Below are positions 2,489-50,000 of a stretch of 64,000 bases of DNA, piece by piece (the first letter of the stretch is position 1; each line of letters begins with the position of its first letter). Source of the stretch: Naegleria gruberi (taxonomy: Eukaryota); the NCBI GenBank assembly GCA_000004985.1, contig GG738888.1. The stretch is one strand, 5' to 3'. Below the pieces are notes generated by a model, which had not been told where the DNA came from, searched no databases, and saw nothing but the letters and a program-made list of their open reading frames with translations. The translations under genes and the position numbers were made by a program.

Positions 2489-2606
2489 GACTACGGCCAT
2501 ATCACGATGAATGCACCTCATCCCGTCCGATTTGAGAAGTTAAGCATCGTCGAGCCACATCAGTACTGAGGTTGGAGACAACTTGGGAACCTGTGGTGCT
2601 GTAGTC
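2489..2606 (+). rRNA. 5S ribosomal RNA (copy 1)
   Basis: A 118-nt sequence GACTACGGCCATATCACGATGAATGCACCTCATCCCGTCCGATTTGAGAAGTTAAGCATCGTCGAG...GGTGCTGTAGTC matches the eukaryotic 5S consensus (CCATA.CAC, CATCCCGTCCGAT, AAGTTAAGC, GTACT, GGGAGAC-like blocks). The 5' GACTACGGC pairs with the 3' GCTGTAGTC to form helix I. It is followed immediately by a T5 run. Confidence 0.8.
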
Positions 2607-2611
2607 TTTTT
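2607..2611 (+). terminator. Pol III terminator T-run after 5S copy 1
   Basis: TTTTT lies directly 3' of the 5S helix I. Confidence 0.5.
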
Positions 2612-3283: not shown

Positions 3284-3353
3284 TCGGGTGTGGTATAGTG
3301 GTAGCATTCCAGACTGTCACTCTGGCGACCCGGGTTCAATTCCCGGCACTCGA
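3284..3353 (+). tRNA. tRNA-Asp (anticodon GTC)
   Basis: A cloverleaf can be drawn. The acceptor stem TCGGGTG/CACTCGA has one G-T wobble. The anticodon stem CCAGA/TCTGG carries the loop CTGTCAC, giving anticodon GTC. The T-stem is CCGGG/CCCGG with loop TTCAATT. An A-box (TGGTATAGTGG) and a B-box (GGTTCAATTCC) are present. The sequence resembles the conserved eukaryotic tRNA-Asp(GUC) family. A T5 run sits 7 nt downstream. There is no intron and no encoded CCA. Confidence 0.8.
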
Positions 3354-3359
3354 GATTAA

Positions 3360-10235: not shown

Positions 10236-11987
10236 TCAAGATAAATCTCTTCTGTCTAACAGTAATTGAACGAGTAGTTTGTTATGATGTGAAATGGCTT
10301 GGACAGAGACAAATGGCAGATACATTGTATAGAGTTCAAAATGAGAACGAGCATACTTCAAGTTATTTCTGGTCATTTTGAGTTCAAGCATCTTTTCATC
10401 TTCAAACCATTCCTTGAACCAATATTGAACTCCCTCACCACAAACTCCAATTTCTGTATAACCTTCATCTCTGTATTGTTGAAGAGTAAAGCACATTTCC
10501 CAAACTTTCTTTTTCAAAAAGGCGACTTGTTCTTCATCATTCTTTTGGTTGGTATTAATTGTATTGAGAGGAACAATTCTTGGTGCAAAAACTCTATTGT
10601 AAATTCGATCTACTAAAATAAAATGTATCAACCCAGGACAGTAATGGAGATAGCTAAGCATGGTGACATGTGACTCGGCCTTAATTTTCAAAAATGAAAA
10701 TCTCTTAAAGTTTGAAATTTCTTCATTGACTCTTATAGCTGCCTCTTTCAATTGATCATGAACTGTTTCCTTATTTTGTTCTTCATCAATTGGTTGTTGT
10801 TCAACTTCTTTGAATGATGCTGCCATTGTTAGTGAAGAGGCAGATTGGTAACTACCAACAGAGGATGGAATCACTTTGGTAGTCTGTTGCTGGATATTGG
10901 TAATATTGGACTCGCAAATCAACATTAAAGTCATATCTTGGTCCTTGTCATATTCGAAATAGACTCCATATCGTCCAAGTTTTTGATCATGATCTCCTCC
11001 ATTCTCTGTCACATGGAAATTCAAATACTCGAAAATAGATCTTGTAATATTATCAGATTCATCACTTGTTCCATTCTTACCCATTTGTTTTGGTTTTTCT
11101 CCGTAGAAAGCACTCTGAGTAAAAACAATCAAACACAAAATATCTCTTGGAAGCAATATCCAAGTCTTTTCTCTAGAGTGTACAGCAGCCAATTTAGTAC
11201 CAACAAGTAAGACTGCATGCAAAATATATGGGTAAGGTTCAGTACCTTTCTTCAGTGCTTCAATAATTGAACCTCTATTGAATTGATTCAAATCTACATA
11301 TTCAATTCCTTGCACGAGAACACTCTGTTGTGTTCTATACAGCCTTTTCATTGTTTCTACAAGTGGTTTCATTAAATTGTAAATAGCAGATTGATTCAAA
11401 GATCTGTTGTTGAAACCATGTTGATTGAAAGGATTCAACATGATGCAAAAGTTTGTCAAATCGTGTAATAAACTAATTTGTCTGTACAAGGCTGCTGTTG
11501 ATTCTTTTGGTTCCTCTTCAAAATCTTCATTATCAAAAACTTCTCCCTTCTTTCTCTTTTCAACTTCTCTAATATAAATAATACAATAATGCAACTCTCC
11601 ACATTGATGTGTCAATAGTACTTTATCATTTCCAAGTGTATGAATTTGTCTACATGTTGTACTATAACAATTCTTTAACGTTTGTTGAGCAACACTCAAA
11701 ACTGGAATGCCAAGCTTTGCAGCTGGGTGATCCGAGAATAATTCCATTGAAGTTTGAGCAATAGTAAAGTATTTGTGAGAAACCACCCTGGAAACATATT
11801 GATTATCTTGTTGATTCTTTGAATATAATCCATCACCACCACTATTATTCTCACCATTAAATCTTATCGAAGCTAGTGGAGAAACAGGTGTCTGATTTCC
11901 ATTCGATGACAATCCACCACCAACACTCAAAAAATCAGATCCTCGCCCACTATTCAACACTGTCCCTCCATTGTTATTGTTTAACAT
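10236..11987 (-). CDS. Hypothetical 583-aa protein; weak resemblance to the longin-domain Rab-GEF subunit Mon1 (uncertain)
   Basis: Single exon, ATG at 11987, with an N-terminal Asn/Gly/Ser low-complexity segment. The size and the C-terminal block ...ARSHFELYTMYLPFVSVQAISHHNKLLVQL resemble the Mon1/SAND family from memory only. The gene is transcribed divergently from the RGP1 homologue. Confidence 0.35.
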   Translation of the reverse strand: MLNNNNGGTVLNSGRGSDFLSVGGGLSSNGNQTPVSPLASIRFNGENNSGGDGLYSKNQQDNQYVSRVVSHKYFTIAQTSMELFSDHPAAKLGIPVLSVAQQTLKNCYSTTCRQIHTLGNDKVLLTHQCGELHYCIIYIREVEKRKKGEVFDNEDFEEEPKESTAALYRQISLLHDLTNFCIMLNPFNQHGFNNRSLNQSAIYNLMKPLVETMKRLYRTQQSVLVQGIEYVDLNQFNRGSIIEALKKGTEPYPYILHAVLLVGTKLAAVHSREKTWILLPRDILCLIVFTQSAFYGEKPKQMGKNGTSDESDNITRSIFEYLNFHVTENGGDHDQKLGRYGVYFEYDKDQDMTLMLICESNITNIQQQTTKVIPSSVGSYQSASSLTMAASFKEVEQQPIDEEQNKETVHDQLKEAAIRVNEEISNFKRFSFLKIKAESHVTMLSYLHYCPGLIHFILVDRIYNRVFAPRIVPLNTINTNQKNDEEQVAFLKKKVWEMCFTLQQYRDEGYTEIGVCGEGVQYWFKEWFEDEKMLELKMTRNNLKYARSHFELYTMYLPFVSVQAISHHNKLLVQLLLDRRDLS

Positions 11988-14913: not shown

Positions 14914-15915
14914 TCAAAAAATAATTTCCATATCTGAAAGTTGATTATTAATCTGTTTTAAAGCCAAATTGCTAACAAAGGTTTCTCCACTTTTTCTCAA
15001 ATATTCAAACAGTAGAAACTTTAGGGAATAAAAGGTGATATCATATTGAGAATTATTGCCATGCGAAAAACCATACCAAGGAGTAAACATGACCTTATTG
15101 TTTTTGTGAACTAACCATGAAACTCTATCTTTACCTTGATAGTCTGAACTTTCAGCTAAAAAGTGCCAATCATCTTTTCTTGTCAATGTTGTAACCACAA
15201 CTCCACACATATATGTATCAGACAAATAAATACAATTTGGTGTAAGTATTGTTTCTGTTGGACTACTTTCTTGAATGTTATCTTTCAAATTCATTTTTTG
15301 TCTATTGATCAAAACCTCCAAACTTTTTTGGTTAATTTGTTTGATTTTGTCAACCTTTAATGCAATATCACCAGTAATAAATTCTATAAATCCATCTGTT
15401 CGTCCCAAAGAATATCCAAGTTTAAAGGGCATTGCTTGTTCACTTCCTCTCAAAAACAGTACAGCAATTTGATTTGAATCAATCAATTGATGGAAAATTG
15501 ATAAAGTCTCCTGATCCCACATTCTTGTACCTGTTCCAGCATAAAGAGTAAATACCAATAGATCATAATTTCTCAGCAAGGACTTTATCACTCCAGGTCT
15601 GCAACTACATAAATCTGTTTGAGCAATCAAATCCACTGCTTTAAATATCAAATCTTTCTCACTCACTGTCTCAAGCCACGGAATTGAAACATTCGGATCA
15701 AGAAGGCTAATTTGTTGTTCCAAATAGATCGGAGCTCTCACAAACGAACACAACTTCTCTCTAATTGTTTTCATGAAATGAGAAGGTTCTCCTGAATCAG
15801 CTGTGATGATTAGTGTTGATTTTAATTGTTTCAATTCTTTGAAGGAGAGAAAAGATTCATCACTTTTGGCGAGATGAATTAAATGTTCTACTTGTTCCCG
15901 GTTGTGGAGTTCCAT
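14914..15915 (-). CDS. Hypothetical protein (333 aa), function unknown
   Basis: Clean single ORF with ATG at 15915. It is convergent with the GNAT gene with about 25 bp between stops. No motif could be assigned with confidence. Confidence 0.5.
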   Translation of the reverse strand: MELHNREQVEHLIHLAKSDESFLSFKELKQLKSTLIITADSGEPSHFMKTIREKLCSFVRAPIYLEQQISLLDPNVSIPWLETVSEKDLIFKAVDLIAQTDLCSCRPGVIKSLLRNYDLLVFTLYAGTGTRMWDQETLSIFHQLIDSNQIAVLFLRGSEQAMPFKLGYSLGRTDGFIEFITGDIALKVDKIKQINQKSLEVLINRQKMNLKDNIQESSPTETILTPNCIYLSDTYMCGVVVTTLTRKDDWHFLAESSDYQGKDRVSWLVHKNNKVMFTPWYGFSHGNNSQYDITFYSLKFLLFEYLRKSGETFVSNLALKQINNQLSDMEIIF

Positions 15916-21880: not shown

Positions 21881-23389
21881 ATGAAAACACGGGGCATTCG
21901 GGAAAGTAACTGCTGTGGGTCTTGCCCGTTACTGACCATCAAAACAAATTCTTCATTTTCATCATCATCGAGGAGTAATCATCACGATTATTCATCAAGC
22001 AATGCTATTAGCCATCAAAACAATGTAGTAAATACTCTAGGAAGCAAAAATCAACAAGTAACTTATCTAGGCAGCAAGAGAAACAGCTTTATTTATTCCC
22101 TAATGTTTATAATATTATTCTGCTTTATGATACACCACGTATCATGTCAGTTTTACGATCCACCCACAAATTTACAATACTTTACTTCATCAAAGAACTC
22201 TAGGCGTTGGATAATTGCTGGCAATTTCACTTCGATATATGTAAATAATAAGACTGCAACCTACACAAATCTAAATAACATTGCTGTTTGGAATGGAAAT
22301 TCATGGAAAGGACTAGGAACAGGAACTAATGGCTTGGTAAGAACCCAATTCATTGATACCTGTTATAATTTATATATTGGTGGCGATTTTAGTAGGGCAG
22401 GAAATATATCAACTGGACCACTCGCAAGATGGTCAATACCTAAACAACGATGGGAGTCAATAACGGATAATGTAGTCTGGGGTAAGGATAGTAAGGTTAA
22501 TTCCATCTCTGTGGATTGCTACAATACACCCTCAGAAGCATCAAGATGTAACTGTAATGTGTGGGTTGGCGGTTCTTTCGAACTTACAATTACCAACTCG
22601 ACGCATAAGGCAACTAATTTAGCAATGTATGAGGCCCGTACCAACACTTGGTATTCCCTTAAAGATACAAACGGACACAACTTGACCCTCTCAAATAGTG
22701 TAAGGACTGTTTTCAAGAGAGACTTTGGTCAGACTTTTAACTCTAGAAAGACATTTGTTGGTGGTGAGTTTCCATACATTCTCACATGGGATCCATACTA
22801 CAAGATTTGGGACAAGATTGATTTGGGTAATTCTAGTCAATCTGTTGTGAATCACATTCATTTCCATAAGGGTATTTTGAATACTGATTTCTTTGATTAT
22901 TGGAACTATGTAGTTGCTGGAGAGTTTGACTTTTCTGTGAACTATACAAGTACAGCTTCTAACAAAACTGTGAGCTGTCGTAATTTATGTTTTCTTGATT
23001 TTAGACATGGTGTGTGGTCTTCAGTCCTGTCAGACCCAATTCTTGAAGGATATGTTGCACACGTCTCAACCAGTGATGGAAATTTATGTGCAGTTGGTAA
23101 CTTTTCCACGGATGCAATCACAAACTTGGTTTCAATAACTTCAGATGGAATTGATTACACCCTATTTAACAATACAATGTCAGGGGAACCGTTTAAAAAC
23201 ATATACTTATGCAAAGAGACAGATCTTGAATGTGCAACAAAGAGTGCTGGCTTATCTGATTCTAATGGTGTTGTTTGGTTTTTTGATTCAGAAACGAGTA
23301 CCTTTACTGAATTTGGAAGAGTCAATGATGGTGGTGTTGTGGAATCGATCAATTCGATTTTTTTATATGGAATTGCTGATAAAATGTAG
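21881..23389 (+). CDS. Membrane/secreted beta-propeller-like glycoprotein (kelch/galactose-oxidase-like G-G-x-F repeats)
   Basis: 502 aa with an N-terminal hydrophobic anchor (FIYSLMFIILFCFMIHHV). It has repeated ...W.G..W..LG.G.NG.V..., ...IGGDF..., WVGGSF, VAGEF and AVGNF motifs, many N-glycosylation sequons, and Cys pairs. Confidence 0.4.
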   Translation: MKTRGIRESNCCGSCPLLTIKTNSSFSSSSRSNHHDYSSSNAISHQNNVVNTLGSKNQQVTYLGSKRNSFIYSLMFIILFCFMIHHVSCQFYDPPTNLQYFTSSKNSRRWIIAGNFTSIYVNNKTATYTNLNNIAVWNGNSWKGLGTGTNGLVRTQFIDTCYNLYIGGDFSRAGNISTGPLARWSIPKQRWESITDNVVWGKDSKVNSISVDCYNTPSEASRCNCNVWVGGSFELTITNSTHKATNLAMYEARTNTWYSLKDTNGHNLTLSNSVRTVFKRDFGQTFNSRKTFVGGEFPYILTWDPYYKIWDKIDLGNSSQSVVNHIHFHKGILNTDFFDYWNYVVAGEFDFSVNYTSTASNKTVSCRNLCFLDFRHGVWSSVLSDPILEGYVAHVSTSDGNLCAVGNFSTDAITNLVSITSDGIDYTLFNNTMSGEPFKNIYLCKETDLECATKSAGLSDSNGVVWFFDSETSTFTEFGRVNDGGVVESINSIFLYGIADKM

Positions 23390-23432: not shown

Positions 23433-24200
23433 TTATTTAGTTTTTGTCATTGTTAATCTTTCAAGTTCTTGAGAATATTGTTGGTTTTGCTTCTTTAAGA
23501 AGGCAATTTCTTCTTCGAATTTCTTCTTTTCCTGTTTGCTCTTTTCTCTTTCTCTCTTTTCTGTTGCTTCACATTTGGCCTGCCATTCCTTAACTTGTTT
23601 ATCCAATTCAGCCTTTTCCTTTTCTAATTGCATAATCTTCAATTCCATTTCAGTTTTTCCGTCTTCGGCGTGAAGTGATTTTCTCATACCAAAAGCCACA
23701 CTACTTTCATACAATTGCTTATATGCTTTGATTGTCATTTTGATTTCATTCCTTACTCGCAGCATCAATAAACCTCTTTGTTGGCAATTTACAGTAACTT
23801 GTCTGATGAGTTCATCAAAGCATTGAGAATATAATTCTTCTCTCACTGGACAAATACCAGTTTCCTTAGCTTTTCTTTTCAAAAGATTTGAATCTAATTG
23901 TTCCTCAAGATTTGTAACATCCAACCTGGTGGCAGGCGTGGATGATACATATTGTATCCATTGTTGACTATTTTCGGAGAAGACTACTGGTGGGAGTATT
24001 GAATTTAAAATATCTTCTGTTTGTGTTAGTCTTTCAGATCCTGTTGTTTGAAGAGGTGGTAAGGCTTGTTTATTCTTTCCTGAAACTCCCATCAAAGCCT
24101 TATTTCCCTTCTTCTTTATTGCCTCCGACAGAAGAATTGGTGTATCATATTTTACAAGTGTATTGGCAGGTGATATATTTTCTTGCTCTTGTTGCATCAT
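23433..24200 (-). CDS. Axonemal inner-arm dynein light chain p28 / DNALI1-like coiled-coil protein
   Basis: 255-aa single exon. ...LVKYDTPILLSEAIKKKG..., ...NSILPPVVFSENSQQWIQYVSSTPATRLDVTNLEEQLD..., ...KETGICPVREELYSQCFDELIRQVTVNCQQRGLLMLRVRNEI...YKQLYESSVAFGMRK... and the C-terminal ...CEATEKRE... coiled coil track the conserved blocks of the p28/DNALI1 family. The comparison is from memory and needs database confirmation. Confidence 0.55.
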   Translation of the reverse strand: MMQQEQENISPANTLVKYDTPILLSEAIKKKGNKALMGVSGKNKQALPPLQTTGSERLTQTEDILNSILPPVVFSENSQQWIQYVSSTPATRLDVTNLEEQLDSNLLKRKAKETGICPVREELYSQCFDELIRQVTVNCQQRGLLMLRVRNEIKMTIKAYKQLYESSVAFGMRKSLHAEDGKTEMELKIMQLEKEKAELDKQVKEWQAKCEATEKREREKSKQEKKKFEEEIAFLKKQNQQYSQELERLTMTKTK

Positions 24201-24591: not shown

Positions 24592-26339
24592 ATGGAAAAT
24601 GTCAACACTAGGTTCAAAAAGATTTTGCTGAAGGCCTTCTCACTTGCAGAGAATTGGCAACAATTGCACAAGGAGAATTGTGAATGTTTTATTGCAATGA
24701 TTAGAGATTTATCGAGTTGGACTTTAATGTCGGGAATGAGTGGAGAAACACAACAAGCCTCGGAAATGGATTCATCAAAATTTGGTATTTTTCAATATTT
24801 TCCCAAGACAACAACACTCATACAGGGAACATATGTTAAAAAGCTGGAGGAGAGTTATAGTAGTATTTATAATAGCTTGTAGGTTTTGATATTTAAATAT
24901 TATTGGAATTAAATGTTGTGGAAAGAACAAAATTCGAAAATATTTGTCACCAATTAGATGTTATTCAACAGGAGGCTGATTCTTTCTATCATCAGTCCCA
25001 ATCGGAATTATTAACATCCATGGAAAGAAAAAGAAATGACAATTCACAATATAATTTTGCCATTGTTGAGGAATATGTGGCAGGAGTTCGAGAAATATAT
25101 ATAATGTTTAAAAAAGAATTATTGAGATATCAAGATTTATTTAAGAACAAATTGAATTATATTGGTCAATCACATGAGGAAATTCAGGACTTGTACAGAC
25201 AATACTCGACACACAAATTTATTAACATTAATAGAGGTAAGTCAACAAATTTAAAATTGTAAATTAATATTTCAATAGTTGTTCAAATTTTGGAAACTTC
25301 AGAACGAGAAACGCACCTCGACAAGGTTGACAAACACAGGTAGAACTCATACTTCCTCAATAAATGATTCATCTATTGATGATAATGATGATGTCATATC
25401 TTGTTGTAAAATTAAATCAAAAAAATGTACAAAAACGACTTTATTGGAGAGGCAACAAGAATGTTGTTCGGCAAGAGATCGAGTGTATCGAGCACACATT
25501 CGGAACAATCCCAACCATCACAACAACAACAACACGATATTAAACAAGCAATGAATGTTGTTGAACAAATAACTAATTTAATGTATACTATTGATCAGGC
25601 TGTTCAACGTATTCAATTATCAATTTCTATCATTCCTTCGATAGATGCCTTGAAGGGTGATATTGCAGAGGGATTATCAGAATCGGAGAAGAAAATTGGA
25701 GAGTTGGAAAGATATTGTGAGGAGAGAATTAAACAACCAACTGGTACTGATGCTGATGAAATTGGATTAGGAAGAATATTGGAAAAAACAACAAACTTGA
25801 AGAAACAATTATCTAGTTTGCAAGTGAAATTTAGAAAGGCTGTACAAATATATAGTAATAAGGAAAATGAATCGAAATTAAAGAGAGAAAAATTGGTAGG
25901 ATTTGAAAATGTTCAAATATCAAGAAAGTCATCACAAAATATTAAACAACAATCGAGACAATCTAGAAAAGTAACAGATTCACTCAAAAGAACAAAAGCC
26001 ATTGTTTCATCAAATTTAGAACGAACTTCATACTCTATGGAAAAATTATCGGAACAAGCATCAATTTTTGAGAGAGCTATCAATACTCAAGAAGGATATC
26101 AAGACAAAGTGAAACAATCAACCATGCTTATCAAGGATTTGAAATGGAAGGAAAGAAGAGATCACTTTATCACTATTGGATGCTTTTTATTCTACTTATT
26201 GGTTGTATTGATAGTATTTAATCATAGAATTCCAGTCTTTACACTGACCTATTATTTTGGAAATTTAATATTTGGAATATTTGGAGGTAGTACAGCTGCA
26301 ACTGACTCAATTATTACAAACGAACCAACGATAAATTAA
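24592..26339 (+). CDS. Tail-anchored coiled-coil protein with C-terminal SNARE-like heptads (Sec20/BNIP1- or Use1-like?), multi-exon
   Basis: It is assembled from track ORFs 24592..24882, 24903..25262 and 25425..26339. A GTAAGT...AG intron lies near 25237-25278. The frames between the pieces do not fully reconcile. The C-terminus has a heptad region ...VTDSLKRTKAIVSSNLERTSYSMEKLSEQASIFERAINTQEGYQDKVKQSTMLIKDLKWKERRD followed by a single TM (ITIGCFLFYLLVVLIVF). Confidence 0.35.
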
Positions 26340-26340
26340 T

Positions 26341-27663
26341 TTATTTCTTCTTCTTAGTTTGAGGAGCAACAGTTTCCTTCTTTTCGAACAAACGTTCAAA
26401 TTGTTGAATTTTCTCTTGTTTTGCCAAAATTTCAAAGAACGAGTCCAGTATTTCACCATCCATCATCTTATCCAAACCAAATTGTGAAAATGAAATTCTG
26501 TGGTCAGTAATTCTATCTTGAGGGAAGTTATAAGTTCTAATCTTGTCTGATCTATCACCTGAACCAATCTGTTCTTTTCTTTCAGATGACATTTTCTGAA
26601 TTTTCTCGTCTTGTTGCTTTTGATAGAGTCTCGAATGCAAAATCTTGAAAGCTTTTTCCTTATTTCTATGTTGTGACCTTTCATCAGCAATACAAACAAC
26701 AGTACCAGTTGGAATGTGGGTTAATCTGACAGCAGAGTCAGTTGTGTTAACATGCTGACCACCAGCACCTGATGCTCTCATAGTATCAATTCTGACATCT
26801 GCAAGATTAATCTTGACATCTGCTTCTGTAACTTCTGGTAAAACCACAATAGATGCTGATGAAGTGTGGACTCTACCTTGTGATTCTGTTGCAGGTACTC
26901 TTTGAACTCGGTGAACTCCACTTTCAAATTTCATACATCCATAAACTCCCAATCCTTCATCGTCTCCATACGATGATCCAGAAATGAGTGCAATTCCTTC
27001 CTTACATCCTTCACCTCCATTATTTGCACTCAAACTCAAAACTTCAAATTTCCAACCTCTTTTAGTTGCATAAAATTCATACATTTTAAATAATTCCATA
27101 GCAAAAAGAGAAGCTTCATCACCTCCTGTTCCAGGTCTAATTTCAATAATAGCATTTGAATTTGGTGAAATTTGATGGTCTTCTGTATCAGATACTGGAG
27201 CATTCAAAAGAACACTAATTAATCTTTCTTGAGTTTTCGAATATTCAATTTCAGTTTCAGAATATTCTTCCTTAGCTAATTGCTTTAATTCTGGATCCTT
27301 TTCCGTATTCATCATTTCTTTGAGTTGTGTAAGTTGAGTTTTTAAATTTTCATACTTGTCTTTTAATTCAACAACATTGTTCAACCATTTTAATTCAACA
27401 AATTGTGATTGTTTTGTTGCTTGACCTGAATAGACAGATTGCGATAATACTTGATGTTTTTCTTGTGCTTTGGCAAGAAATTGAGCAACTTGTTCATTGA
27501 CTGCGAAAGTATACTTTCCGATGGACTCATCATTATCTTCCGAATTGTATTTTATACGTGTAGTGTGAAATCCAACACTTTTAGAGAATGCTGATGATGA
27601 TTTTAATATTCTACTATTGTGTGAATAAAATTGTAATGCTGTCTTTTGAAGGTTTCGTAACAT
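26341..27663 (-). CDS. Mitochondrial peptide chain release factor 1 (class I RF, GGQ)
   Basis: 440-aa single exon with a presequence-like N-terminus. The RF-1 domains are present, including ...RASGAGGQHVNTTDSAVRLTHIPTGTVVCIADERSQHRNKEKA... Confidence 0.85.
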   Translation of the reverse strand: MLRNLQKTALQFYSHNSRILKSSSAFSKSVGFHTTRIKYNSEDNDESIGKYTFAVNEQVAQFLAKAQEKHQVLSQSVYSGQATKQSQFVELKWLNNVVELKDKYENLKTQLTQLKEMMNTEKDPELKQLAKEEYSETEIEYSKTQERLISVLLNAPVSDTEDHQISPNSNAIIEIRPGTGGDEASLFAMELFKMYEFYATKRGWKFEVLSLSANNGGEGCKEGIALISGSSYGDDEGLGVYGCMKFESGVHRVQRVPATESQGRVHTSSASIVVLPEVTEADVKINLADVRIDTMRASGAGGQHVNTTDSAVRLTHIPTGTVVCIADERSQHRNKEKAFKILHSRLYQKQQDEKIQKMSSERKEQIGSGDRSDKIRTYNFPQDRITDHRISFSQFGLDKMMDGEILDSFFEILAKQEKIQQFERLFEKKETVAPQTKKKK

Positions 27664-27696: not shown

Positions 27697-30600
27697 TTAA
27701 TAATTTGAATACTTGCTCTTTGAGCGAGAGGATGAACCCAAATCTTCATAAGGATCATAATCAAACTCAGTCGATCTGTTTAAAATTTCTTCAACAGTCA
27801 TTCTCTTATTTGGTCTACCAGGACTAGTAATCTTTCTTGCTGGACTGCTTGTACTCATACTCAAACTGTTTTGGAGTTCGGCAAGGTGAGCTCTGGCATT
27901 CTTAAGTTCCTTATCTAATTCTTGGACTTCTCTGCTAGTCTTGGCATTTGATTCGTTCAAAGTCTTCATAATCTTATGACTGGCTGACAAATCTCTTTCA
28001 ACCTTTTTCTTGACAGATCCAAAAGCGGATGTTGGAGTTTTAGAAATTGAGGAATAAGCTGATGGAGTTGCCTTTGGAGTTTGTTCTTCTTTTTGAAGAG
28101 TAGTATTCAATGTTGGTTTGCTAGCAAATCCTGATGTATACTTAGAGGTGGTGTTGGTAGAAGAAATACTAGTATTAGTAAGAGAGTCAGAGTCACTGAA
28201 AATAGAAGCATCCTTTGGCTTCTTGAAAAGCTTTTGTCTGAGGTCTGAAACCATATTTTCATACTTGCTCTTTTCTCTTTCTAATTCTGAAAGCATTTCA
28301 CTGGTCTTCTTAGATGTATTGAAAAGCTTGCTACACTCGTCTCTCTTCAATTCAAGTTCTCTTGAGGCAGAATCTAACTTTTGAGTCTTTTCAGAGAGTT
28401 GATCTTGGAGTTCTTGAAGGTCGGATCTATATTGGTTAAGTTGGCTTAATTGAGATTCAAATTCTTGCTTGAATTGTTCCTTTTCGAATTGAACAGTAGT
28501 ATAGTTTGATCTGAGTTTTTCAACTTCCTTCTTCAACATGTCGAACTTTTCAGGTTCAATAAGATTGAGATTTTCTTCCTCTAGATCATTGATTCTATTT
28601 TCCATGAAAGATACCAATTCAGATTTCTTCTTGATGATTTCTTCCATTTCTTCAGCTCTCTTGGAAACTCTTTCAACTTCTTCTGTCAATTGGACACACT
28701 TCTTTTGCAAACTGCCCTTTTCAGACTTCAATTCTCTCAAAGACTTGACAACACCAACAGTTGTTTGTTGAACAACACTAAGACCTCTCTTTTGAGGGCT
28801 TGAATGTACAATGGTCTTTAGTTGCTTCTTGATTGGAGTACTGAAAGAATCATTTCCGTTATATTTGTATCCAGTAATGAGTTGTCTGTTAATGGTGGCT
28901 TGGAGTCCGTCGTGGAGACTTCTCATCAATGACAGATCTTCTCTTGGTTCGTCAAATTCATTATCAAGTTGACCAACAAGTTGGAGGTAAGCATGAATGG
29001 ATCCCTTGTATTCGTCCATTGGAATTTGCAATTCTCTATTATCATTGATAGCTTCAGGGGCCAACAAACCTAATCTGTCCCCACCAACAGTGTAATAGAG
29101 AGTTGATCCTTCCTTTTCTTCTCTCTTTTGAAGAAGAAGCTTGTTGAATCTGTTACCAATAATTACAGCCAAAACAGCAGCTCTGAAAGATGTCTTTGGT
29201 TTTTCAGAAGAGTATTCTCTTGGGAATTCAAATTCAGAAACAACTTCAAATTCAGTTGAAAGTGACTTGACAGTTTCATAAACACCTTTGAGGAGTCTTT
29301 CATATTGTCTAAGTTGAGATTTGAGAACAACCTTGTGCATCTTGAGGTCATCAATTCTATCCTTCATTGGTCTGATACCTCTGGCCAACAACTTCAATCC
29401 ATTATGAAGCTTGTTTTGATCAATTTGAGAGTCTCTAAGCTCAGTCTTCAAAACTTCAACAATCATAGTAGATTTCTTCAACTTTCCAGTAGTATCTGAC
29501 AATTGTTCTTGAGTTTCACGAAGAGCTTCTTCTAGTTCTTTAACCTTTTCAGTGTAATCAATTTCGAGCATTTCAATTTGATGTTCAAATTTGCTTCTTT
29601 GCTCATCAATTTCACCTTGATAGTTCTTTTCTAATTCGCTTCTTTCGGATTCATACTTTTCCATATTGGCCTTCATTGTCTTGTTTGCTTCTTCAAGTCT
29701 GGCATTAAGATCGGCAATTTTTTCCTTTTGAGCAGCAGCTTCCTTCTTCAATGATTCTCTTTCAACAAGGTGAGCAGTAACTTGTTCAGAGAATAAAGAT
29801 TGGAATGTTTCCCAGCTGATAGGTTCGTCACTATCAGAGCCTTGTGGTCTTCCTCTGAGTGGTGATCCGTTTCTTCTATCATTTGTTGGTGTATCCTTCA
29901 ACATCTTGTACAAAGAATAGACATATCTCAATCTGTTCTTTTCTTCTTCTTGGTGAGAGTCAAGGAGTTCTTCCAATTCATTAACAGAATCTTCGAGTTC
30001 TTGCTTTTGTTCCTTAAGAGCTCTGTTGACCTTTTCACCATCAGATAATTGCTTCTTAAGATTGATCAATTCCTTGTAAGTATCAGAGTGATCATGATTC
30101 AAGTTTTGGAAGTTGCTTGACAAACCATCGAGTTCATCTTGCAAAATCTTACACTTGTCTCTACTTACAATGAGATCATCAAGAGCGTCGAGAACCTTAG
30201 ATTTAAGAGCCTTATAATTTGGTTTGACAGCTTCAAGAGCCTTCTTGTTGAGTTGAGAATCATCTTCATTTCTAGAATATTCGTGACCTTCCAAGACATG
30301 TTCAACAGTCTTCATCATTGCATAGAAATCAGAAGCCAATGATCCATGAGCAGAACCGACTTCGCTTTCCTTAAGATCTCTTTGAGAAACAGCCGAATTG
30401 TATTGTTCAGTGATTCTTTCAGATGTATCCTTATAGTGGGAAAGTTCTCTTTGGAGGAAATCATTTTCTGCCTTAACTTTTGAAAGTTCATCAAGTCTAT
30501 CCTTCAATTGATCATTTTCATCCTTCAAATCAGCAATATAAGCTTCCAAGTTGTCATTGATTTCGTTCATCTTTCTCAACTCTTCAGTAACCAATTGCTT

Positions 30601-31938
30601 TCCGTGATTTTCCTTATCAAGTTGATTTTGAACTTCTTCCAATCTCTTACGAGTATTTTGAATTTCATTCTTGAGTTCAGGAATAATACTGAGATCCTTC
30701 TTCAATTCAGAAACCAAAGTTTCTTCAACGTTCAATTCAGTGACTCTATCTTGCAAAGAGAGAATATTGTTTTGAAGTTGGCTGAGGGTTGAACCTTGTT
30801 CTTGCTTTTCCATTTCAAGTCTATCAATCTTTCTCTTCAGCTTGTCAATTTCAAGGTCCTTATCTTCAGAAACCTTTTGTCCCTTTTTGATTCTCATATC
30901 GGATTCATTAATTCTCTCAGTAAGCTCGGATCTAGTATTAAGAAGGATTTCAATTTGTTCTTGAAGCTTTTCAGCCAATTCCTTTTGACTCTTAGTCTTC
31001 TTATCTTGAAGCTCGTTTTGTTCTCTCAAAGAGATTGACAAATCTTGTAATTCTTTTTCGAGATTTGCTCTTTGATGTGCAGAAATCGCAATTTCTTCTC
31101 TTGATTGATCGAGTTCCTTCTTGAGTTGGGAAATTTCAACATCTCTCTTACCCTTTTCTTCAGTCAGAACTTGTTGAAGTTGAAGTAATTCTTCTCTCAA
31201 TTGCTTTTCAACACCCTTTTGTGTTGTAATACGATCATTAGCTTCTGATTCAAGTCTCTTCATTTCTTCTTCCTTACCTCTGGAACGTTCTCTTAGGATA
31301 CTAACTTCGTTTCTTAATTGTACAGTATCATCCCTATATTGAAGGAGATCATCGACTTGTCTTTGCAAATCATTAATAATTTTTTGTTTTTTCTGATTTT
31401 CAAACTTAATTTGTTGGACCTGGGTTAATTGTTGTCTTAAGAGTCTAACAGAATCATCGTCATCACCACCCTTCTCCATATTTAGTTTGCTCTTCTCTAA
31501 CAGCTTTTGGAATTCTCTAAATTCAGTTTCTTCATCTTGTATATCTTGTTGATATTGTTGATGTTGTTGCTGTTGTTGAAGCTCGGCCTCCTCGGAAAGT
31601 TTTCTATAGATCTTCTCACCAGTTGGGCTAAGGAATTTGGCAAAATCATCAGAAGGTTGTTCTCTCATAGAATCTCTAGGGTCTTCTTCTATCATTGATG
31701 ATGATGTTTGTCTTCTAGAAGTACTGTTTGATCTTCTTTTTGGAGTTTTATAATAAGAGTTTGAGCCTCTAATAGGAGATTCTTTAAGGGAAGTTGGGCT
31801 TGATACTGGGTCAATCATTCTTGATGATGCCTTAGTTGTGCTAATAGACATTGAACGATTATTAGTATTATTTGCGTTTGGAGTAAAACTCGTTCGCCTC
31901 TTAGGGGTTGATTCATACATGAAAGAGTCTTGATCCAT
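27697..31938 (-). CDS. Large coiled-coil protein (1413 aa), S/T-rich ends
   Basis: A single uninterrupted ORF with almost continuous heptad coiled coil (E/K/L/Q-rich) between Ser/Thr/Asn-rich N- and C-terminal segments. No motor or catalytic domain is recognisable. Confidence 0.6.
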   Translation of the reverse strand: MDQDSFMYESTPKRRTSFTPNANNTNNRSMSISTTKASSRMIDPVSSPTSLKESPIRGSNSYYKTPKRRSNSTSRRQTSSSMIEEDPRDSMREQPSDDFAKFLSPTGEKIYRKLSEEAELQQQQQHQQYQQDIQDEETEFREFQKLLEKSKLNMEKGGDDDDSVRLLRQQLTQVQQIKFENQKKQKIINDLQRQVDDLLQYRDDTVQLRNEVSILRERSRGKEEEMKRLESEANDRITTQKGVEKQLREELLQLQQVLTEEKGKRDVEISQLKKELDQSREEIAISAHQRANLEKELQDLSISLREQNELQDKKTKSQKELAEKLQEQIEILLNTRSELTERINESDMRIKKGQKVSEDKDLEIDKLKRKIDRLEMEKQEQGSTLSQLQNNILSLQDRVTELNVEETLVSELKKDLSIIPELKNEIQNTRKRLEEVQNQLDKENHGKQLVTEELRKMNEINDNLEAYIADLKDENDQLKDRLDELSKVKAENDFLQRELSHYKDTSERITEQYNSAVSQRDLKESEVGSAHGSLASDFYAMMKTVEHVLEGHEYSRNEDDSQLNKKALEAVKPNYKALKSKVLDALDDLIVSRDKCKILQDELDGLSSNFQNLNHDHSDTYKELINLKKQLSDGEKVNRALKEQKQELEDSVNELEELLDSHQEEEKNRLRYVYSLYKMLKDTPTNDRRNGSPLRGRPQGSDSDEPISWETFQSLFSEQVTAHLVERESLKKEAAAQKEKIADLNARLEEANKTMKANMEKYESERSELEKNYQGEIDEQRSKFEHQIEMLEIDYTEKVKELEEALRETQEQLSDTTGKLKKSTMIVEVLKTELRDSQIDQNKLHNGLKLLARGIRPMKDRIDDLKMHKVVLKSQLRQYERLLKGVYETVKSLSTEFEVVSEFEFPREYSSEKPKTSFRAAVLAVIIGNRFNKLLLQKREEKEGSTLYYTVGGDRLGLLAPEAINDNRELQIPMDEYKGSIHAYLQLVGQLDNEFDEPREDLSLMRSLHDGLQATINRQLITGYKYNGNDSFSTPIKKQLKTIVHSSPQKRGLSVVQQTTVGVVKSLRELKSEKGSLQKKCVQLTEEVERVSKRAEEMEEIIKKKSELVSFMENRINDLEEENLNLIEPEKFDMLKKEVEKLRSNYTTVQFEKEQFKQEFESQLSQLNQYRSDLQELQDQLSEKTQKLDSASRELELKRDECSKLFNTSKKTSEMLSELEREKSKYENMVSDLRQKLFKKPKDASIFSDSDSLTNTSISSTNTTSKYTSGFASKPTLNTTLQKEEQTPKATPSAYSSISKTPTSAFGSVKKKVERDLSASHKIMKTLNESNAKTSREVQELDKELKNARAHLAELQNSLSMSTSSPARKITSPGRPNKRMTVEEILNRSTEFDYDPYEDLGSSSRSKSKYSNY

Positions 31939-35719: not shown

Positions 35720-37894
35720 TTGCTCAGGAATTCTTCTTGTTCAATATTTTTAGCTCCTGCCGTTAATGAAAAAATGAATGAAATCTTCTCTTCATCACGA
35801 TCAGGTGTTTACCACACAACCAACAAGAAGAAGGGACTGATGAATTCATCATCAACATCCTCAACTCATCACACAACAAGATGGCTCATATCTTCATTGC
35901 TATACTTGTTGATGTTCATTATTTTGTATAGAGTCAATGCTATGACACCCCAACAACAACAACAAACAATTCCTATCCACAACAATCTAAATGATAATAC
36001 TACACCATCTTCTTCGGATTCAATGTCCACTTCTACATCATATGACTACTTACAACATACACTCTCGAAGGAAAATGTAGCAGTTGTAGCAACAACATTG
36101 GCCACTCTAGCCTATGGATACAACAAACGTTTTGCTGATCAGACAGGAAGACTTTGGGATGGTCTTCAATCCTTTGTTTCTACTTCTTCCAAGTTAGCAA
36201 GTGATAGTGGTGTTGGTCCGGATGCTGCCTTTATTCAGAACAAGGAGTTTCTTGTTGGAAAGGCACAATTCGTGAAGAGTATTCTGGAGAAGAAGATTCA
36301 TCTATTGTTCTCGTGGAAAAACATGTTTACAGTGACCAAATGGGCTGTTATTGCAACTTCATCTGCTCAGACTGTCAAACTTGTTTATGAATTGTGGATT
36401 TATGAAGACATCTTTCAACATGCTGGGGAAACTTTACATAACTTTAAACATGATCAGAGGGAAATTTATGATCGGTTGAACGAACTCATTGATGTTTTGG
36501 AACAAATGTCCAATCTTGTTGTTACACAGGAAAGGTTTATTCCTTCATCATCGACTCCTTCAAAGTTATTTACAAGGTTGGGAGAGGCTACTAAATTAGA
36601 TGAAAGCTTTGAAAAGAATTTCATTAAATTGACCAAAAAGTTTACCAAGATTCAAGCCACTCTCCAAAAGGACATTGAAGGAATGCAAGCACAAATGGAA
36701 GAATTGAAGAGTAAGGTTCAGCAAGACTCTGCATTCTTTAAGAAGAGACAAGAGAAATCACTTACTAATACTTTTGTTGGAGCTTCTTGTTTGGCATTAA
36801 GTGTTGGAGCTTCTTTATTGTTCCCTCCAGCAGCACCTGCAATTCTTGCTTCACATGCTGGTGGTATTATCAGTTTATCAGTAGCTGGTATCAATTATGG
36901 TCTCTACTATTATTCAAACTCAAAGAAGGATAAGGCAGAATATAGATTGAAAGAAGTAGTAAAATTGCAAGAGCAAATTGGAAGTATTCGAAACCAATCA
37001 ATGGAATATTTGAATCATTATGAAGCTCAAAAGGCAGAAATTGTCAAATATATGAAGAAGTTGAGATCTGAGGACAAGAAGAAGAAATCCTTGTCGACAC
37101 TTTTACTACCAGCTATGCATGATTTCAACCCACTGGAGACTGAAAACTTGGAGCAACGACTTTGGAATATTGTGGGAATATACCAAGCAAATACTCTCCT
37201 GTTATGGTATCACTCTTTCCATTTCATTTTCCTAATGATGACACTTTTCACATTTGCCAAAAATGGGTTGAATATGTCAGCCAAGACATTGGTTGTATTG
37301 TTCTTCTATTGCGCTATCCTCCTCACCCTAGATATGGCTTACGATTTTAAAGAGAGCCGACAAACAACCTTAGATATCCATTTAGATACTTCCATTCTTT
37401 TTATTAAGGTTACTAAGCAAACATACGAGGAAAGATATAGGCATGAATGTATTTGGTATGAGCTTCCAGTCAGAAAACAATTAGAATTGGATTTAAAATC
37501 ATTGGTTCTTAAATTTGTTCCAGGATATTCAGATGTGGCAGATAGTCTTACTGCCACCAATGCCAGTGGTCATTTAATTCACAGCTCTAAATGTCTTCAC
37601 TACAAACAAGTTATGGAAAGTAATGATGATAGTGTGACCTCTAATTTGATTCAAACCAGTACTCATTCAATTGTTGGTGTTGATGTTAAACAAATCAACA
37701 ATCCATCAGAGATGTCCGGCAGTACATATTTTGATTTCATAAGCTCTGTATTTTTCAGACTAATCCGAACAGCAGCTGACTGTTGTGAAATTGTTTATGA
37801 AAGGACATCAATTGGTGCCAAGCTTTGCTTGGGAATGGCGCTAGCTTCCGTTCTATTTATTATTGCAAAGAGGATTGTTTGTTGTGGCTTGTAA
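35720..37894 (+). CDS. Hypothetical multi-pass membrane protein with coiled-coil segment (724 aa)
   Basis: Single ORF with an N-terminal signal anchor, a long helical/coiled segment, a hydrophobic hairpin (SCLALSVGASLLFPPAAPAILASHAGGIISLSVAGINYGLYYY), and further TM helices including a C-terminal one. No family was recognised. Confidence 0.5.
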   Translation: MLRNSSCSIFLAPAVNEKMNEIFSSSRSGVYHTTNKKKGLMNSSSTSSTHHTTRWLISSLLYLLMFIILYRVNAMTPQQQQQTIPIHNNLNDNTTPSSSDSMSTSTSYDYLQHTLSKENVAVVATTLATLAYGYNKRFADQTGRLWDGLQSFVSTSSKLASDSGVGPDAAFIQNKEFLVGKAQFVKSILEKKIHLLFSWKNMFTVTKWAVIATSSAQTVKLVYELWIYEDIFQHAGETLHNFKHDQREIYDRLNELIDVLEQMSNLVVTQERFIPSSSTPSKLFTRLGEATKLDESFEKNFIKLTKKFTKIQATLQKDIEGMQAQMEELKSKVQQDSAFFKKRQEKSLTNTFVGASCLALSVGASLLFPPAAPAILASHAGGIISLSVAGINYGLYYYSNSKKDKAEYRLKEVVKLQEQIGSIRNQSMEYLNHYEAQKAEIVKYMKKLRSEDKKKKSLSTLLLPAMHDFNPLETENLEQRLWNIVGIYQANTLLLWYHSFHFIFLMMTLFTFAKNGLNMSAKTLVVLFFYCAILLTLDMAYDFKESRQTTLDIHLDTSILFIKVTKQTYEERYRHECIWYELPVRKQLELDLKSLVLKFVPGYSDVADSLTATNASGHLIHSSKCLHYKQVMESNDDSVTSNLIQTSTHSIVGVDVKQINNPSEMSGSTYFDFISSVFFRLIRTAADCCEIVYERTSIGAKLCLGMALASVLFIIAKRIVCCGL

Positions 37895-39864: not shown

Positions 39865-39982
39865 GGCTACGGCCATATCACGATGAATGCACCTCATCCC
39901 GTCCGATTTGAGAAGTTAAGCATCGTCGAGACACATCAGTACTGAGGTTGGAGACAACTTGGGAACCTGTGGTGCTGTAGTC
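39865..39982 (+). rRNA. 5S ribosomal RNA (copy 2)
   Basis: 118 nt. It is near-identical to copy 1 apart from two substitutions (position 2 is G instead of A; CGAGACACAT instead of CGAGCCACAT). It has the same helix I pairing and is followed by a T6 run. Confidence 0.8.
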
Positions 39983-39988
39983 TTTTTT
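39983..39988 (+). terminator. Pol III terminator T-run after 5S copy 2
   Basis: TTTTTT lies directly 3' of the 5S sequence. Confidence 0.5.
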
Positions 39989-42134: not shown

Positions 42135-44915
42135 TCAAGTAAAAATTTTGGTGAGTGTCTCTGTTAGTATTCTCTTGGTTTCATCCAACAAATTTCCGTC
42201 TATTGGAGTCGAACGAACAGTCAACACTGAAACTGATTCTACCAACTTGTTTGATTTCTCAGTTAGTACAAAGTTAATGACAGGAATCTTGTTAATCTGA
42301 CATGCAGTGGCAACAGCTAATGTGCTTGGTGTTGGCGAACTTCCAACTAGAATAACAGCTGTTGCTTGTTGTTGTTGGATAGACATGTCAAAGTGATACA
42401 TGGTTTCAGCTGCAGAGCTCAGATTTGTTTGAGCTGTATCAAACTCTCTGCTCAACATGAAGTCATTGAACGACTTGAATTTTGTAATCTTGGATAATTC
42501 ATCCGAATCTATTTGGGCAATGGATTGATCGGCAACTCCCAGGCTATATTGAATAGTGAATGGTAACTCTAAACTACTTAACATTTTAAGAATAGTTCTT
42601 CCTTCATTTTGATTACTCAGGAAAACGAAAGCAGTTCTCAGATCATTATTTCGGTAAGAGTTCATTAATCTATTACCTCTCTGAGTTTCCTTTTGAATAA
42701 TAAGAGATCTTGCTTCACTGGTGCCTTGTACTCTTCCAGTTGTATCTCCATTATTACTAATTTGCATATAATCACCTGAATATGAATTTGTTTCTAGTGT
42801 TCGAGAAACTGGCATGACGAAACATCTTATATTGGCGTACTTTCTTGCATTGGAACATAGATGCCAGTCCTCTCCAGTGGCCCATGAGAACATCTTTTCT
42901 CTGAACAATAGTTTAACCCACTCCCTCTCCATGAACCAACTTCCACCGACAACATCCACCTCAATGATCTGTTCTGAACCAGAGACAGGTCCATAAAAAT
43001 AATCCTCAGCTGTTGGAGTTCCTTTCGTTCCAAGAATTCCTCTGTAATTATTGGTATTGATAGTGTGAATGGCTGCCTCTAAAAATCTCTTCTCAGGAAT
43101 GCAATCATCATCAAAAACAGCAATATACTTGGTTGGTGATTGTAGCGCAAGTTGAAATCTTCCAAAATATTTGAGCTGCATTTCTCCCTTATTGATAAAG
43201 AGTGAAATATTATTGGATGTGGCAAGTAACTTGGCCTCTTGTATTTCATTTTCAATCTCCTCTGCTTTAGGCGATGCAAAAAAGACCATCCAAACTACTT
43301 TAGGTTGATGAGTTTGTGAGAGGAGAGCTTGCATCCATCTCTTCACTAGACCTGTTCTCTTATACAAACCAACAACGACAGTGACAGAAAATTCATCAGA
43401 GGTCTTCGTTGCTGGAGTGTATGCGCTAGGTAATGCGAATAATTCTTGCATGGTGAGTGGATCTTTTGGTTTTGATCTTTCCAATAATTCCTTCTTTCTA
43501 CTTTCGAATGGTAAGAAATTTTGAGAGTAAACACTTTCTGCAATTGAATCTTGAATGAATTGAGTGGAACATTCACTAGATTCTGGTAATTTGGAGGTGA
43601 CAAAATCACGAACAATTTTTGAAATTCTCATGCTAGCTTTTCCATCTCCAAATATGTGTTTTGAAAGAATTAGTTTCGAATTTTGTGAATCCTTGATTGC
43701 GTCGGTCATGGCTTTCACAATGTGATGATAATTAACACCTATCTTTTTAATAGTTCCAATGTATATTCCCTCTGGTCTCTCAGTTGTATCTCGCATGAGT
43801 ATAACAGGTTTTCCAATACTTGCTGATTCCTCTTGAATGCCACCAGAGTCAGTAACCACAATGTCAGCTTCACTAATGACATGTGGAAAGATGTCATAGG
43901 CAATTGGATCAACTAGTTGGACATTATCCAAAGAAGATAACACTTCATGTACTACACTCTTAGCATTTGGATTTGGATGAACAGGTAGAATGACCATGAC
44001 GTTCTTACCAAATGTGTTGGAAATTGTTTTGATGGCATTACACATCTCTTTAAAGTGTGGAATGTTCTCTCTTCTGTGCATGGTAACAAGAATTACAGTT
44101 CGATGTGAAGATGTAGTCGCATCAACATGCTTGGTTTTAAAACTTCTGATGTTTTGAAGCAACTCTGGAATTATTTTTGGTGGGAGAGACTTTAAGGAAT
44201 AGAACGAATCAATACCAGTGTTACCAGTGACATGCACATGCTGTGGACAGATGCCTTCTCTAACAAGAGCTGCTTTAGAAAATTCTGTTGGAGCGAACAA
44301 GAGACTGGCAAACGAGTCAATCACTTTACGATTCAACTCCTCTGGGAATGGACTATTGAAATCATAAGATCTCAATCCAGCTTCTACATGTCCAACTGGT
44401 ATCTTTAAATAACTGGCTGCAAGGGCAGCAACAAGAGATGTAGTTGTGTCGCCTTGAACCAACACCATGGAGATTGGCCCTTGCTTTTCAAATTCTAAAC
44501 TAATCTTTTGGAAGGCAAGTGTGAAGAAAGAGGAGATGCTTTGATTGGGAGTCATTAACTTCAAGTCAATGTCCACATGTTGATGAAATACACCAAGAGT
44601 TTGCTTTAAAATCTCACTATGTTGACCAGTACTCAACACAATCACCTCCAATTCAGAGTGATGGTTTGACTTGAGATGTGAAATTAGTGGAGCACATTTG
44701 ATAGCTTCTGGTCTTGTTCCCAAAACTATGACTACTCTTGGCATGTTCTTCTTGTGAGGAATGAGAACACTTTCATGGTTTTCATTGGAATGTGGTCTGA
44801 CCAGAACAACATCTGAATCAATAGCTGACTTGTTAGTTCTCAATAGAAAAAAGAAAACGAAACTAATCACCAATAATGTTGCACACACAATAGCGAGCTT
44901 AAATATCTTACTCAT
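42135..44915 (-). CDS. Type II membrane protein: UDP-GlcNAc 2-epimerase (non-hydrolysing, WecB/MnaA-type) fused to a GT-A (GT64/EXT-C-like) glycosyltransferase domain plus an unknown C-terminal domain
   Basis: 926-aa single exon with an N-terminal signal anchor (LAIVCATLLVISFVFFFLL). Epimerase_2 hallmarks are present: ...VVIVLGTRPEAIKCAPL..., ...STGQH..., ...HVEAGLRSYD..PFPEE.NR..., ...HRREN..., ...DSGGIQEE..IGKPVILMRDTTERPEG... A second domain follows, with ...FSVTVVVGLYKR...KYIAVFDDDCIPEKRFLE...VDVVGGSWFM...ATGEDWHLC... It resembles the GT64 (EXTL2/EXT C-terminal) DxD fold. Confidence 0.75.
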   Translation of the reverse strand: MSKIFKLAIVCATLLVISFVFFFLLRTNKSAIDSDVVLVRPHSNENHESVLIPHKKNMPRVVIVLGTRPEAIKCAPLISHLKSNHHSELEVIVLSTGQHSEILKQTLGVFHQHVDIDLKLMTPNQSISSFFTLAFQKISLEFEKQGPISMVLVQGDTTTSLVAALAASYLKIPVGHVEAGLRSYDFNSPFPEELNRKVIDSFASLLFAPTEFSKAALVREGICPQHVHVTGNTGIDSFYSLKSLPPKIIPELLQNIRSFKTKHVDATTSSHRTVILVTMHRRENIPHFKEMCNAIKTISNTFGKNVMVILPVHPNPNAKSVVHEVLSSLDNVQLVDPIAYDIFPHVISEADIVVTDSGGIQEESASIGKPVILMRDTTERPEGIYIGTIKKIGVNYHHIVKAMTDAIKDSQNSKLILSKHIFGDGKASMRISKIVRDFVTSKLPESSECSTQFIQDSIAESVYSQNFLPFESRKKELLERSKPKDPLTMQELFALPSAYTPATKTSDEFSVTVVVGLYKRTGLVKRWMQALLSQTHQPKVVWMVFFASPKAEEIENEIQEAKLLATSNNISLFINKGEMQLKYFGRFQLALQSPTKYIAVFDDDCIPEKRFLEAAIHTINTNNYRGILGTKGTPTAEDYFYGPVSGSEQIIEVDVVGGSWFMEREWVKLLFREKMFSWATGEDWHLCSNARKYANIRCFVMPVSRTLETNSYSGDYMQISNNGDTTGRVQGTSEARSLIIQKETQRGNRLMNSYRNNDLRTAFVFLSNQNEGRTILKMLSSLELPFTIQYSLGVADQSIAQIDSDELSKITKFKSFNDFMLSREFDTAQTNLSSAAETMYHFDMSIQQQQATAVILVGSSPTPSTLAVATACQINKIPVINFVLTEKSNKLVESVSVLTVRSTPIDGNLLDETKRILTETLTKIFT

Positions 44916-47089: not shown

Positions 47090-50000
47090 ATGTTAAAGTG
47101 GTGTGTCCTCATAATTATTCTTCTCTCAACCATTTTCACATCACATGCACAATATGTCACACAAACAGTGGCAGGTAATGGAATTTCCCAAAGTTTGGGA
47201 GATGGTTTTCTTGGAACACAAGCGAGTTTAAACAGTCCAAGAGATGTTGCTCTTGACATGTATGGTAACATGTACATAGCTGAAGAGAAGGCACACAAGA
47301 TTAGATTCATAAACAAGACAACAGGTATTATTTCAACATTGGTTGGAAATGGCATTGCTGGAAGTGTTGGAGATGGTGGATTGGCTATTAATGCACAATT
47401 ACATTTACCATTCTCTCTAGCAATTGATTCGACTGGTCAAAATTTGTTCATTTCTGACAGTGGAAACCATGTTATTCGTCACATTAACATGACAACACGT
47501 ATCATTTCAACTGTTGCTGGAACAATGCGTAGTCCTGGATTTGGTGGTGATGGAAATATTGCCACACAAGCACTATTAAACACTCCTAGAGGAATTAGAC
47601 TTGATTGGAAGGGAAACATTTATATTGCAGGTAGTGTAGTTTATTGACAATTTAATACTTACAATAATGCAAGATACTTCAAATTGTGCCATTAGAATGG
47701 TCAATAGAACTAATGGGCTCATTTCAACCATTGCTGGTAAGGGATCAATTTGTGGAACTAAATTATTAGGAAATGGTGGATTAGCAAATAGTACAACACT
47801 TTACAATCCGTTTGGTGTTGCGGTCGACTCATTTTTCAATGTTTATATTGCTGAGAGTTCTGCAAGTGTTATTCGATTTGTTGATAAATCAACAGGTATT
47901 ATTTCAACATATGCAGGTGATGGCTCTCCAGCATATAGCGGGGATGGTGTATTGGCAAGTCAAGCTAAATTGAATTATCCTAATTTTGTAACTATTGACA
48001 ACTTGTCAAATAATCTTTTAATTGCTGACACTGCTAATTTTGTAGTAAGATATGTGAATAGAACAACTAGAATTATATCGACCATTGCAGGATATAATGT
48101 TAATGGAAATAGTGGTGATGGTCTTCCAAGTAAGCAATCATCCTTTTCTTCCTTATTTGGAATAACAACAGACATGGAAGGAAATGTATACATTGTAGAT
48201 GCACCGAATTCTGTTGTTAGAATACTAATCAAAACATGTGATAGCTTATTATTTACCTGTAATAATCATGGTTCATGTCTTTCATCCCAAACTTGTAAAT
48301 GTAATTATGGATGGAGCACAGAAACATGTATCCAACCAACTTGTTTTGGTATTTTAGCAACCACTAATGTGGCATGTAGTGGACATGGAAAATGTTCATA
48401 TGTGGATTTATGTGAATGTGATATGGACTTTTTTGGTAATGAATGTGAATTCTTTAAATGTTATGGAATTAATTATAATAATCAATCTGTGTGCAGTAAT
48501 GGTAGAGGAAACTGTTCTTCACCAAATAATTGTACTTGTCAGAATAATTATTTTGGTAATGAATGTGAATTAACAACTTGTTATGGAATTGAAAGTAATA
48601 ATTCCAAAGTATGTTCTGGAAATGGTAAATGTATAGGAAAGGATGAATGCTCATGTATGAATGGGTATGTTGGCGACTATTGTCAGCATACTGTTTGCTT
48701 TGGTATTTATGGAAACGAAACATGTTCTTCTAGAGGAAGTTGTATAGCACCTGATAATTGTGAGTGTTTGGATGGCTACGGTGGCAGAGATTGTAGACAT
48801 TATGAAGTTTTTATGGATTTTGAAACTGTTTCCATTCATTCATCTCATCATCTGTTAATGAGAAAGTTAACAAGTGACTTATTGGAGTGTGGAGAGATAG
48901 TATCAGAATCGGATATATTAAAATTGGGGGAGAAAGATTCCCTTAAATGTTATTGGAGGGAATTAAGTGGATTTAGAATATATTTAGGCTATAATCATAA
49001 TATAACACATGGTTCAGTTTTAAATATCATGAATAATCTATTGACCATACATGTTAATGCATCTATTTCAGATCAAATTAGAAAAAGTAATGAAAATGGT
49101 GTTGTAATAGGATTTCCACTTGATGTATTTCCAACTAACAAGGATTTATTAATTAGATCTCAACATGATCAACACTATAATAATTTTAAATCAGTTTCCC
49201 AGAATTGGAAATTTTCTACAGTTATTCGTAATACAATTCATCCAATTCAAGAATTACTAGATAGAAACGATAACAAACCGATCGTTATCATTCCATCAAT
49301 TAATATTTCGGATCTTCAATCACTAACCATATCAACATTGACAATCAATGATTTATCAATTCAATCAACAAGTGAAAGAACATTTGCATTTGAGAAATCA
49401 AAGGATATTCCATCACAATTTAATATTTGGAATGAAATTAGTTCACAATCTTATTACCAAGATTGTATAGGACATAATTGTATAGTTGAATCAACATTAA
49501 TTGGAATGAAAACATCACTCACTTATTCTTTTAATGGATTTTTAATTGTAAAAAGTAAAGAATTTCAAAATAGACAAATATTTAGAATTACAAACAAAGT
49601 TGAAAATGATTTATTGAAAGAAAATTACAAAGGAACAATGCAAGTAGTAGGATTGAATTTAAATTCATACTCTTCTTCTTATTATCAAGTTGATTTGACA
49701 TATTCATCATTTGACATGTTGGATATTTATCTTGTTGGAATTAACAAGACATATTCTAGAAATGAGGCTATTGTTTTATCTACTTCTATTATTGATCCCT
49801 TTGTGTTTACCTACTCAGATATTAATAGTTTTAAACAAAGATGGTCATATCAAAATTCAATTACTAAACAATATGATTCAATTTTTGGAAGTCAGCTCTA
49901 TATTGCACCGCTACCTGTTGGATTATATGATATTTCGTTAAACGTAACTACGAAGTCCAATGTTTATACTTTTTATGGTAAAATTGATATTGTAAATTTT

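Follow-up and report, generated by a model that had tools for sequence, protein, structure and literature searches.

Light chain p28 and the flagella of Naegleria

The light chain p28 of the inner dynein arms is a coiled-coil dimer that attaches, along with an actin monomer, to the N-terminal tails of some of the single-headed inner-arm dyneins. In Chlamydomonas the dyneins that carry p28 are a, c and d, and they need p28 to assemble stably on the doublet. Naegleria gruberi is the textbook amoeboflagellate, which makes basal bodies and a pair of motile flagella from scratch. The conserved set of flagellar motility genes in the Naegleria genome has already been published, and two papers from 2010, one in Cell and one in J Cell Sci, reportedly catalogued the flagellar genes of this organism.

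Loss of DNALI1, the p28 of mammals, disrupts inner-arm assembly and sperm motility in human and mouse (PMC9932082, PMC9885801). Naegleria flagellates possess two basal bodies, which template motile flagella (PMC4819266). Axonemal dynein heavy chains of both the inner and the outer arm are encoded in the N. gruberi genome, and five of the six inner-arm dyneins and three of the four outer-arm dyneins are specific to differentiation, according to a transcriptome study (10.1101/2024.01.08.573270); the Pfam family PF10211 is among the microtubule-related domains listed in the same paper. The partners that p28 binds elsewhere are thus present in the Naegleria genome. Among the supplement rows listed, a search for “82719”, the number in the locus tag of the gene described below, gave two matches, in both of which the digits fall inside numeric values, and no jgi_82719. 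Literature searches by locus tag and accessions, and with Naegleria combined with DNALI1, found nothing.

The open-reading frame and its product

In the window, that is the whole 64,000-nucleotide stretch of N. gruberi DNA that was analysed, an uninterrupted ATG-to-TAA open-reading frame on the minus strand occupies exactly 23433..24200. It is a single exon of 255 codons, corresponding to 255 amino acids, plus the stop.

23433..24200, minus strand: p28/DNALI1 coding sequence, NAEGRDRAFT_82719 (open-reading frame, PF10211 match, exact N. gruberi protein identity)

The frame is convergent with an upstream open-reading frame of 502 amino acids, and the two stop codons lie 43 bp apart.

The protein carries a conserved N-terminal motif, SPANTLVKYDTPILLS, spanning residues ~9–25, followed by a variable linker (residues ~26–58) and the PF10211 core (residues 62–248), which ends in a charged coiled-coil tail. 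Its translation includes KYDTPIL, QWIQYVSSTPATRLDV, ETGICPVREELYSQCFDELIRQVTVNCQQRGLLMLRVRNEI, LYESSVAFGMRK and CEATEKRE. These blocks had been quoted in the initial annotation as hallmarks of p28 and all of them are present, while two further strings quoted there turned out to be the human consensus. The string given as ILPP..W reads ILPPVVF in the window, as opposed to ILPPREW in human and Chlamydomonas, and that given as PVRRELY, the human form, reads PVREELY. Both mismatches are cosmetic and the observation itself is confirmed.

Family assignment and orthology

A Pfam search assigned the protein to a single family, PF10211 (Ax_dynein_light), with a score of 280.9 bits (E 7.1e-84) against a curated gathering cut-off of 26.4 bits, and the match covers all profile positions, 1–187 of 187. 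Among all PDB chains the best match, at E 1.4e-84, is the “28 kDa inner dynein arm light chain” of Chlamydomonas in 7ju4/8glv, and the “axonemal dynein light intermediate polypeptide 1” of human is matched in 8j07 (E 1.2e-81) as well as in 9fqr and 9d2f. The alignments to the Chlamydomonas and human chains extend from query residue ~9 to 250. These top matches are proteins seen in situ in axonemes by cryo-EM, and p28/DNALI1 is present as multiple chains in each cryo-EM entry, which fits several copies per 96-nm repeat.

Pairwise BLASTP gave 60% identity and 78% similarity to Chlamydomonas p28 over 240 aligned residues, and 58% identity and 75% similarity to human DNALI1 over 252. The initial annotation had proposed an inner-arm dynein light chain of the p28/DNALI1 type and had named a BLASTP or profile comparison with such proteins as the way to check it; the identification is borne out by both kinds of comparison. 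In a six-way alignment of the window protein, the three sequences of its Naegleria cluster, Chlamydomonas p28 and human DNALI1, 115 columns are invariant across Naegleria, Chlamydomonas and human. In all the aligned proteins a conserved Y-D-x-P motif at the N-terminus and a variable linker precede the conserved core, and a charged coiled coil forms the tail. Judged by its forward best match and its architecture, the open-reading frame at 23433–24200 is a canonical p28/DNALI1 orthologue.

PF10211 holds several paralogous lineages, and the protein might instead be a divergent member of the family, such as the extra light chains of trypanosomatids or an AXDND1-type protein, rather than a true p28 orthologue. 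Six divergent chains of this kind are found in PDB entries 9e5c and 9y6s, and they score only e-20 to e-30 against the Naegleria protein, whereas the scores of canonical p28-type chains, aligned over almost their full length, are e-71 to e-84, and e-71 to e-74 for those within the same two entries. This gap places the window protein in the canonical p28/DNALI1 lineage. The size of the protein, 255 amino acids against 253–258 for canonical p28/DNALI1 chains, argues in the same direction, as does the N-terminal KYDTP motif, which lies outside the Pfam core and is common to Naegleria p28 and the canonical chains. The identity as a divergent paralogue is very unlikely, and was rejected on the gap in PDB scores.

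Comparison with named relatives

The p28 of Chlamydomonas reinhardtii (IDA4; PDB 7JU4, 8GLV) is nearly equal in length to that of Naegleria, 253 as against 255 residues, and is built in the same way, with an N-terminal YD.P motif, a variable linker, the PF10211 core and a C-terminal coiled coil. Unlike it, the Naegleria protein has an eight-residue N-terminal extension, MMQQEQEN, its ILPP is followed by VVF instead of REW, and its C-terminal tail is slightly longer.

Human DNALI1 (PDB 8J07, 9FQR, 9D2F) is near-identical to the Naegleria protein in ETGICPVR.ELYSQCFDELIR, LYESSVAFGMRK and KCEATEKRE, while its linker (residues ~20–60) is longer and rich in proline. It is the human protein for which disease and sperm phenotypes are described in PMC9932082 and PMC9885801.

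The closest relatives are the orthologues from N. fowleri (FDP41_003434) and N. lovaniensis (C9374_002645), which are 91–93% identical to the N. gruberi protein and fall with it into one 90%-identity cluster. A cluster member from the Logan/ENA assemblies is likewise 91–93% identical. The N. fowleri and N. lovaniensis proteins differ from that of N. gruberi only in a handful of residues at the very N- and C-terminal ends and in scattered conservative changes, and their level of identity indicates purifying selection.

Genomic setting

The protein is residue-for-residue identical to N. gruberi EFC41066.1 / XP_002673810.1 / UniProt D2VQ87 (NAEGRDRAFT_82719). Nine neighbouring open-reading frames were also looked up, and two of them are exact N. 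gruberi proteins from the same 351,708-bp scaffold as p28.

14914..15915, minus strand: exact match to N. gruberi protein EFC41063.1
59494..61326, plus strand: exact match to N. gruberi protein EFC41008.1

The other seven of the nine mechanically called frames submitted gave no exact database match. The annotated gene models presumably have other start codons or introns, and these seven frames are not counted against N. gruberi since the two matches besides p28 share its scaffold. The GC content is uniform along the window, ~0.28–0.37 and about 33% overall, which is well above the roughly 22% of D. discoideum. The lineage of N. gruberi is Eukaryota; Discoba; Heterolobosea, and dictyostelids belong to Amoebozoa, a supergroup unrelated to Heterolobosea.

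The source had initially been described as an otherwise dictyostelid-like genome, a description that is overturned by three open-reading frames identical to N. gruberi proteins of one scaffold and by the heterolobosean lineage of that organism. The impression presumably came from an AT-rich, compact and intron-poor sequence with amoeba-type gene content, and the likeness is superficial. A second suggestion, that the DNA might come from a flagellated relative of the dictyostelids, was correct as to the flagella and mistaken as to the kinship, the two groups being in different supergroups.

The same misjudgement of the source organism produced an apparent paradox, an axonemal gene without flagella. 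One solution offered was that the axonemal component had been retained and had taken on a new role, possibly associated with cytoplasmic dynein. An interaction of mammalian DNALI1 with cytoplasmic dynein has been reported, but nothing in the present analysis supports a non-axonemal role in a host without flagella. The host, N. gruberi, does have motile flagella (PMC4819266) and inner-arm heavy chains induced at differentiation, and identities of 58–60% together with 115 invariant columns are what an unchanged axonemal function predicts. A repurposed p28 in a flagellum-less host is refuted by the identity of the organism, and the probability left to a non-axonemal role is very small. There is next to no chance that the stretch is contaminant or horizontally acquired DNA in an unrelated genome. 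The open-reading frames at ~15 kb, 23.4 kb and 60 kb all match N. gruberi proteins of one scaffold exactly and have neighbouring accessions, the GC content shows no break within its range of ~0.28–0.37, and two other Naegleria species, each sequenced independently, have orthologues. The N. gruberi matches spread over the scaffold, together with the orthologues in N. fowleri and N. lovaniensis, effectively refute contamination or horizontal transfer.

Proposed role of p28 in Naegleria

In view of its sequence, its place in the family, and a source organism that has flagella and inner-arm heavy chains, the Naegleria gene is very probably a canonical p28/DNALI1 with the usual axonemal inner-arm role. 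By orthology, the protein would form a coiled-coil homodimer. The dimer, together with an actin monomer, would bind the N-terminal tail of single-headed inner-arm heavy chains of the Chlamydomonas a/c/d type, and p28 is expected to be required for the pre-assembly of these inner-arm motors and for their docking at sites in the 96-nm axonemal repeat. By analogy, it would be made during the differentiation from amoeba to flagellate and be incorporated into the two motile 9+2 flagella. Naegleria amoebae are without cytoplasmic microtubules, and it seems improbable that p28 is also expressed in amoebae and has, besides its axonemal job, a second role outside the flagellum.

The presence of p28 is expected, since N. 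gruberi grows two beating flagella; it is an ordinary and already known gene of a flagellated organism and is nothing new. The public records for the N. gruberi, N. fowleri and N. lovaniensis proteins nevertheless carry the names “hypothetical” or “uncharacterized” protein despite the 58–60% identity. This is a gap in annotation and not a finding about biology, and the records could safely be renamed to inner-arm dynein light chain p28/DNALI1. The main value of the result is a negative one, in that it does away with the supposed paradox of an axonemal gene whose host has no flagella.

Other features of the window

Pfam scans of 20 large open-reading frames revealed no further axonemal genes in the window. 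Eukaryotic ciliary genes are unclustered, so a single axonemal gene in the window is to be expected. The other families found include Sec20, the class I release factor domains PCRF/RF-1, Nrap/UTP22, Dis3/Rrp44 (RNB) and an Rgp1-like protein, and the window also encodes a 2OG-Fe(II) oxygenase, a nitroreductase, a PPR protein, protein kinases and an LRR protein. Seven large open-reading frames of 502–1413 amino acids have no Pfam match at E <= 1e-5.

21881-23389, plus strand: open-reading frame without Pfam match
27697-31938, minus strand: open-reading frame without Pfam match
10236-11987, minus strand: open-reading frame without Pfam match
35720-37894, plus strand: open-reading frame without Pfam match
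53123-55186, minus strand: open-reading frame without Pfam match
55601-57259, minus strand: open-reading frame without Pfam match
61594-63834, minus strand: open-reading frame without Pfam match

Four of the frames with Pfam matches are listed below.

26341-27663, minus strand: 440-aa bacterial-type class I peptide chain release factor (PCRF and RF-1 domains, Pfam)
25425-26339, adjoining the release factor frame: open-reading frame with a Sec20 domain (Pfam)
42135-44915, minus strand: 926-aa open-reading frame, UDP-N-acetylglucosamine 2-epimerase (PF02350, 320 bits) fused to a family-2 glycosyltransferase-like region
47667-52553, plus strand: 1628-aa open-reading frame, teneurin-like NHL and EGF N-terminal part and C-terminal protein kinase (Pfam)

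The PCRF/RF-1 protein is presumably a mitochondrial release factor. The architecture of the epimerase–glycosyltransferase frame looks bacterial, and Naegleria may have acquired this gene horizontally, while the domains of the 1628-residue protein suggest a receptor-kinase-like architecture.

Two 5S rRNA genes, both complete (Rfam RF00001, 106 and 99 bits, respectively), lie ~37 kb apart in the window, with a tRNA gene ~680 bp downstream of the first of them.

2489-2607, plus strand: 5S rRNA gene
3284-3354, plus strand: tRNA-Asp (GTC)
39865-39983, plus strand: 5S rRNA gene

The two 5S copies differ at two positions and have unrelated flanks, indicating that they are dispersed single-copy genes and not members of a tandem array. 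In the genus Naegleria the ribosome-encoding DNA is located on an extrachromosomal circular element (PMC10112140), which makes the dispersed chromosomal 5S genes a small point of genome organisation.
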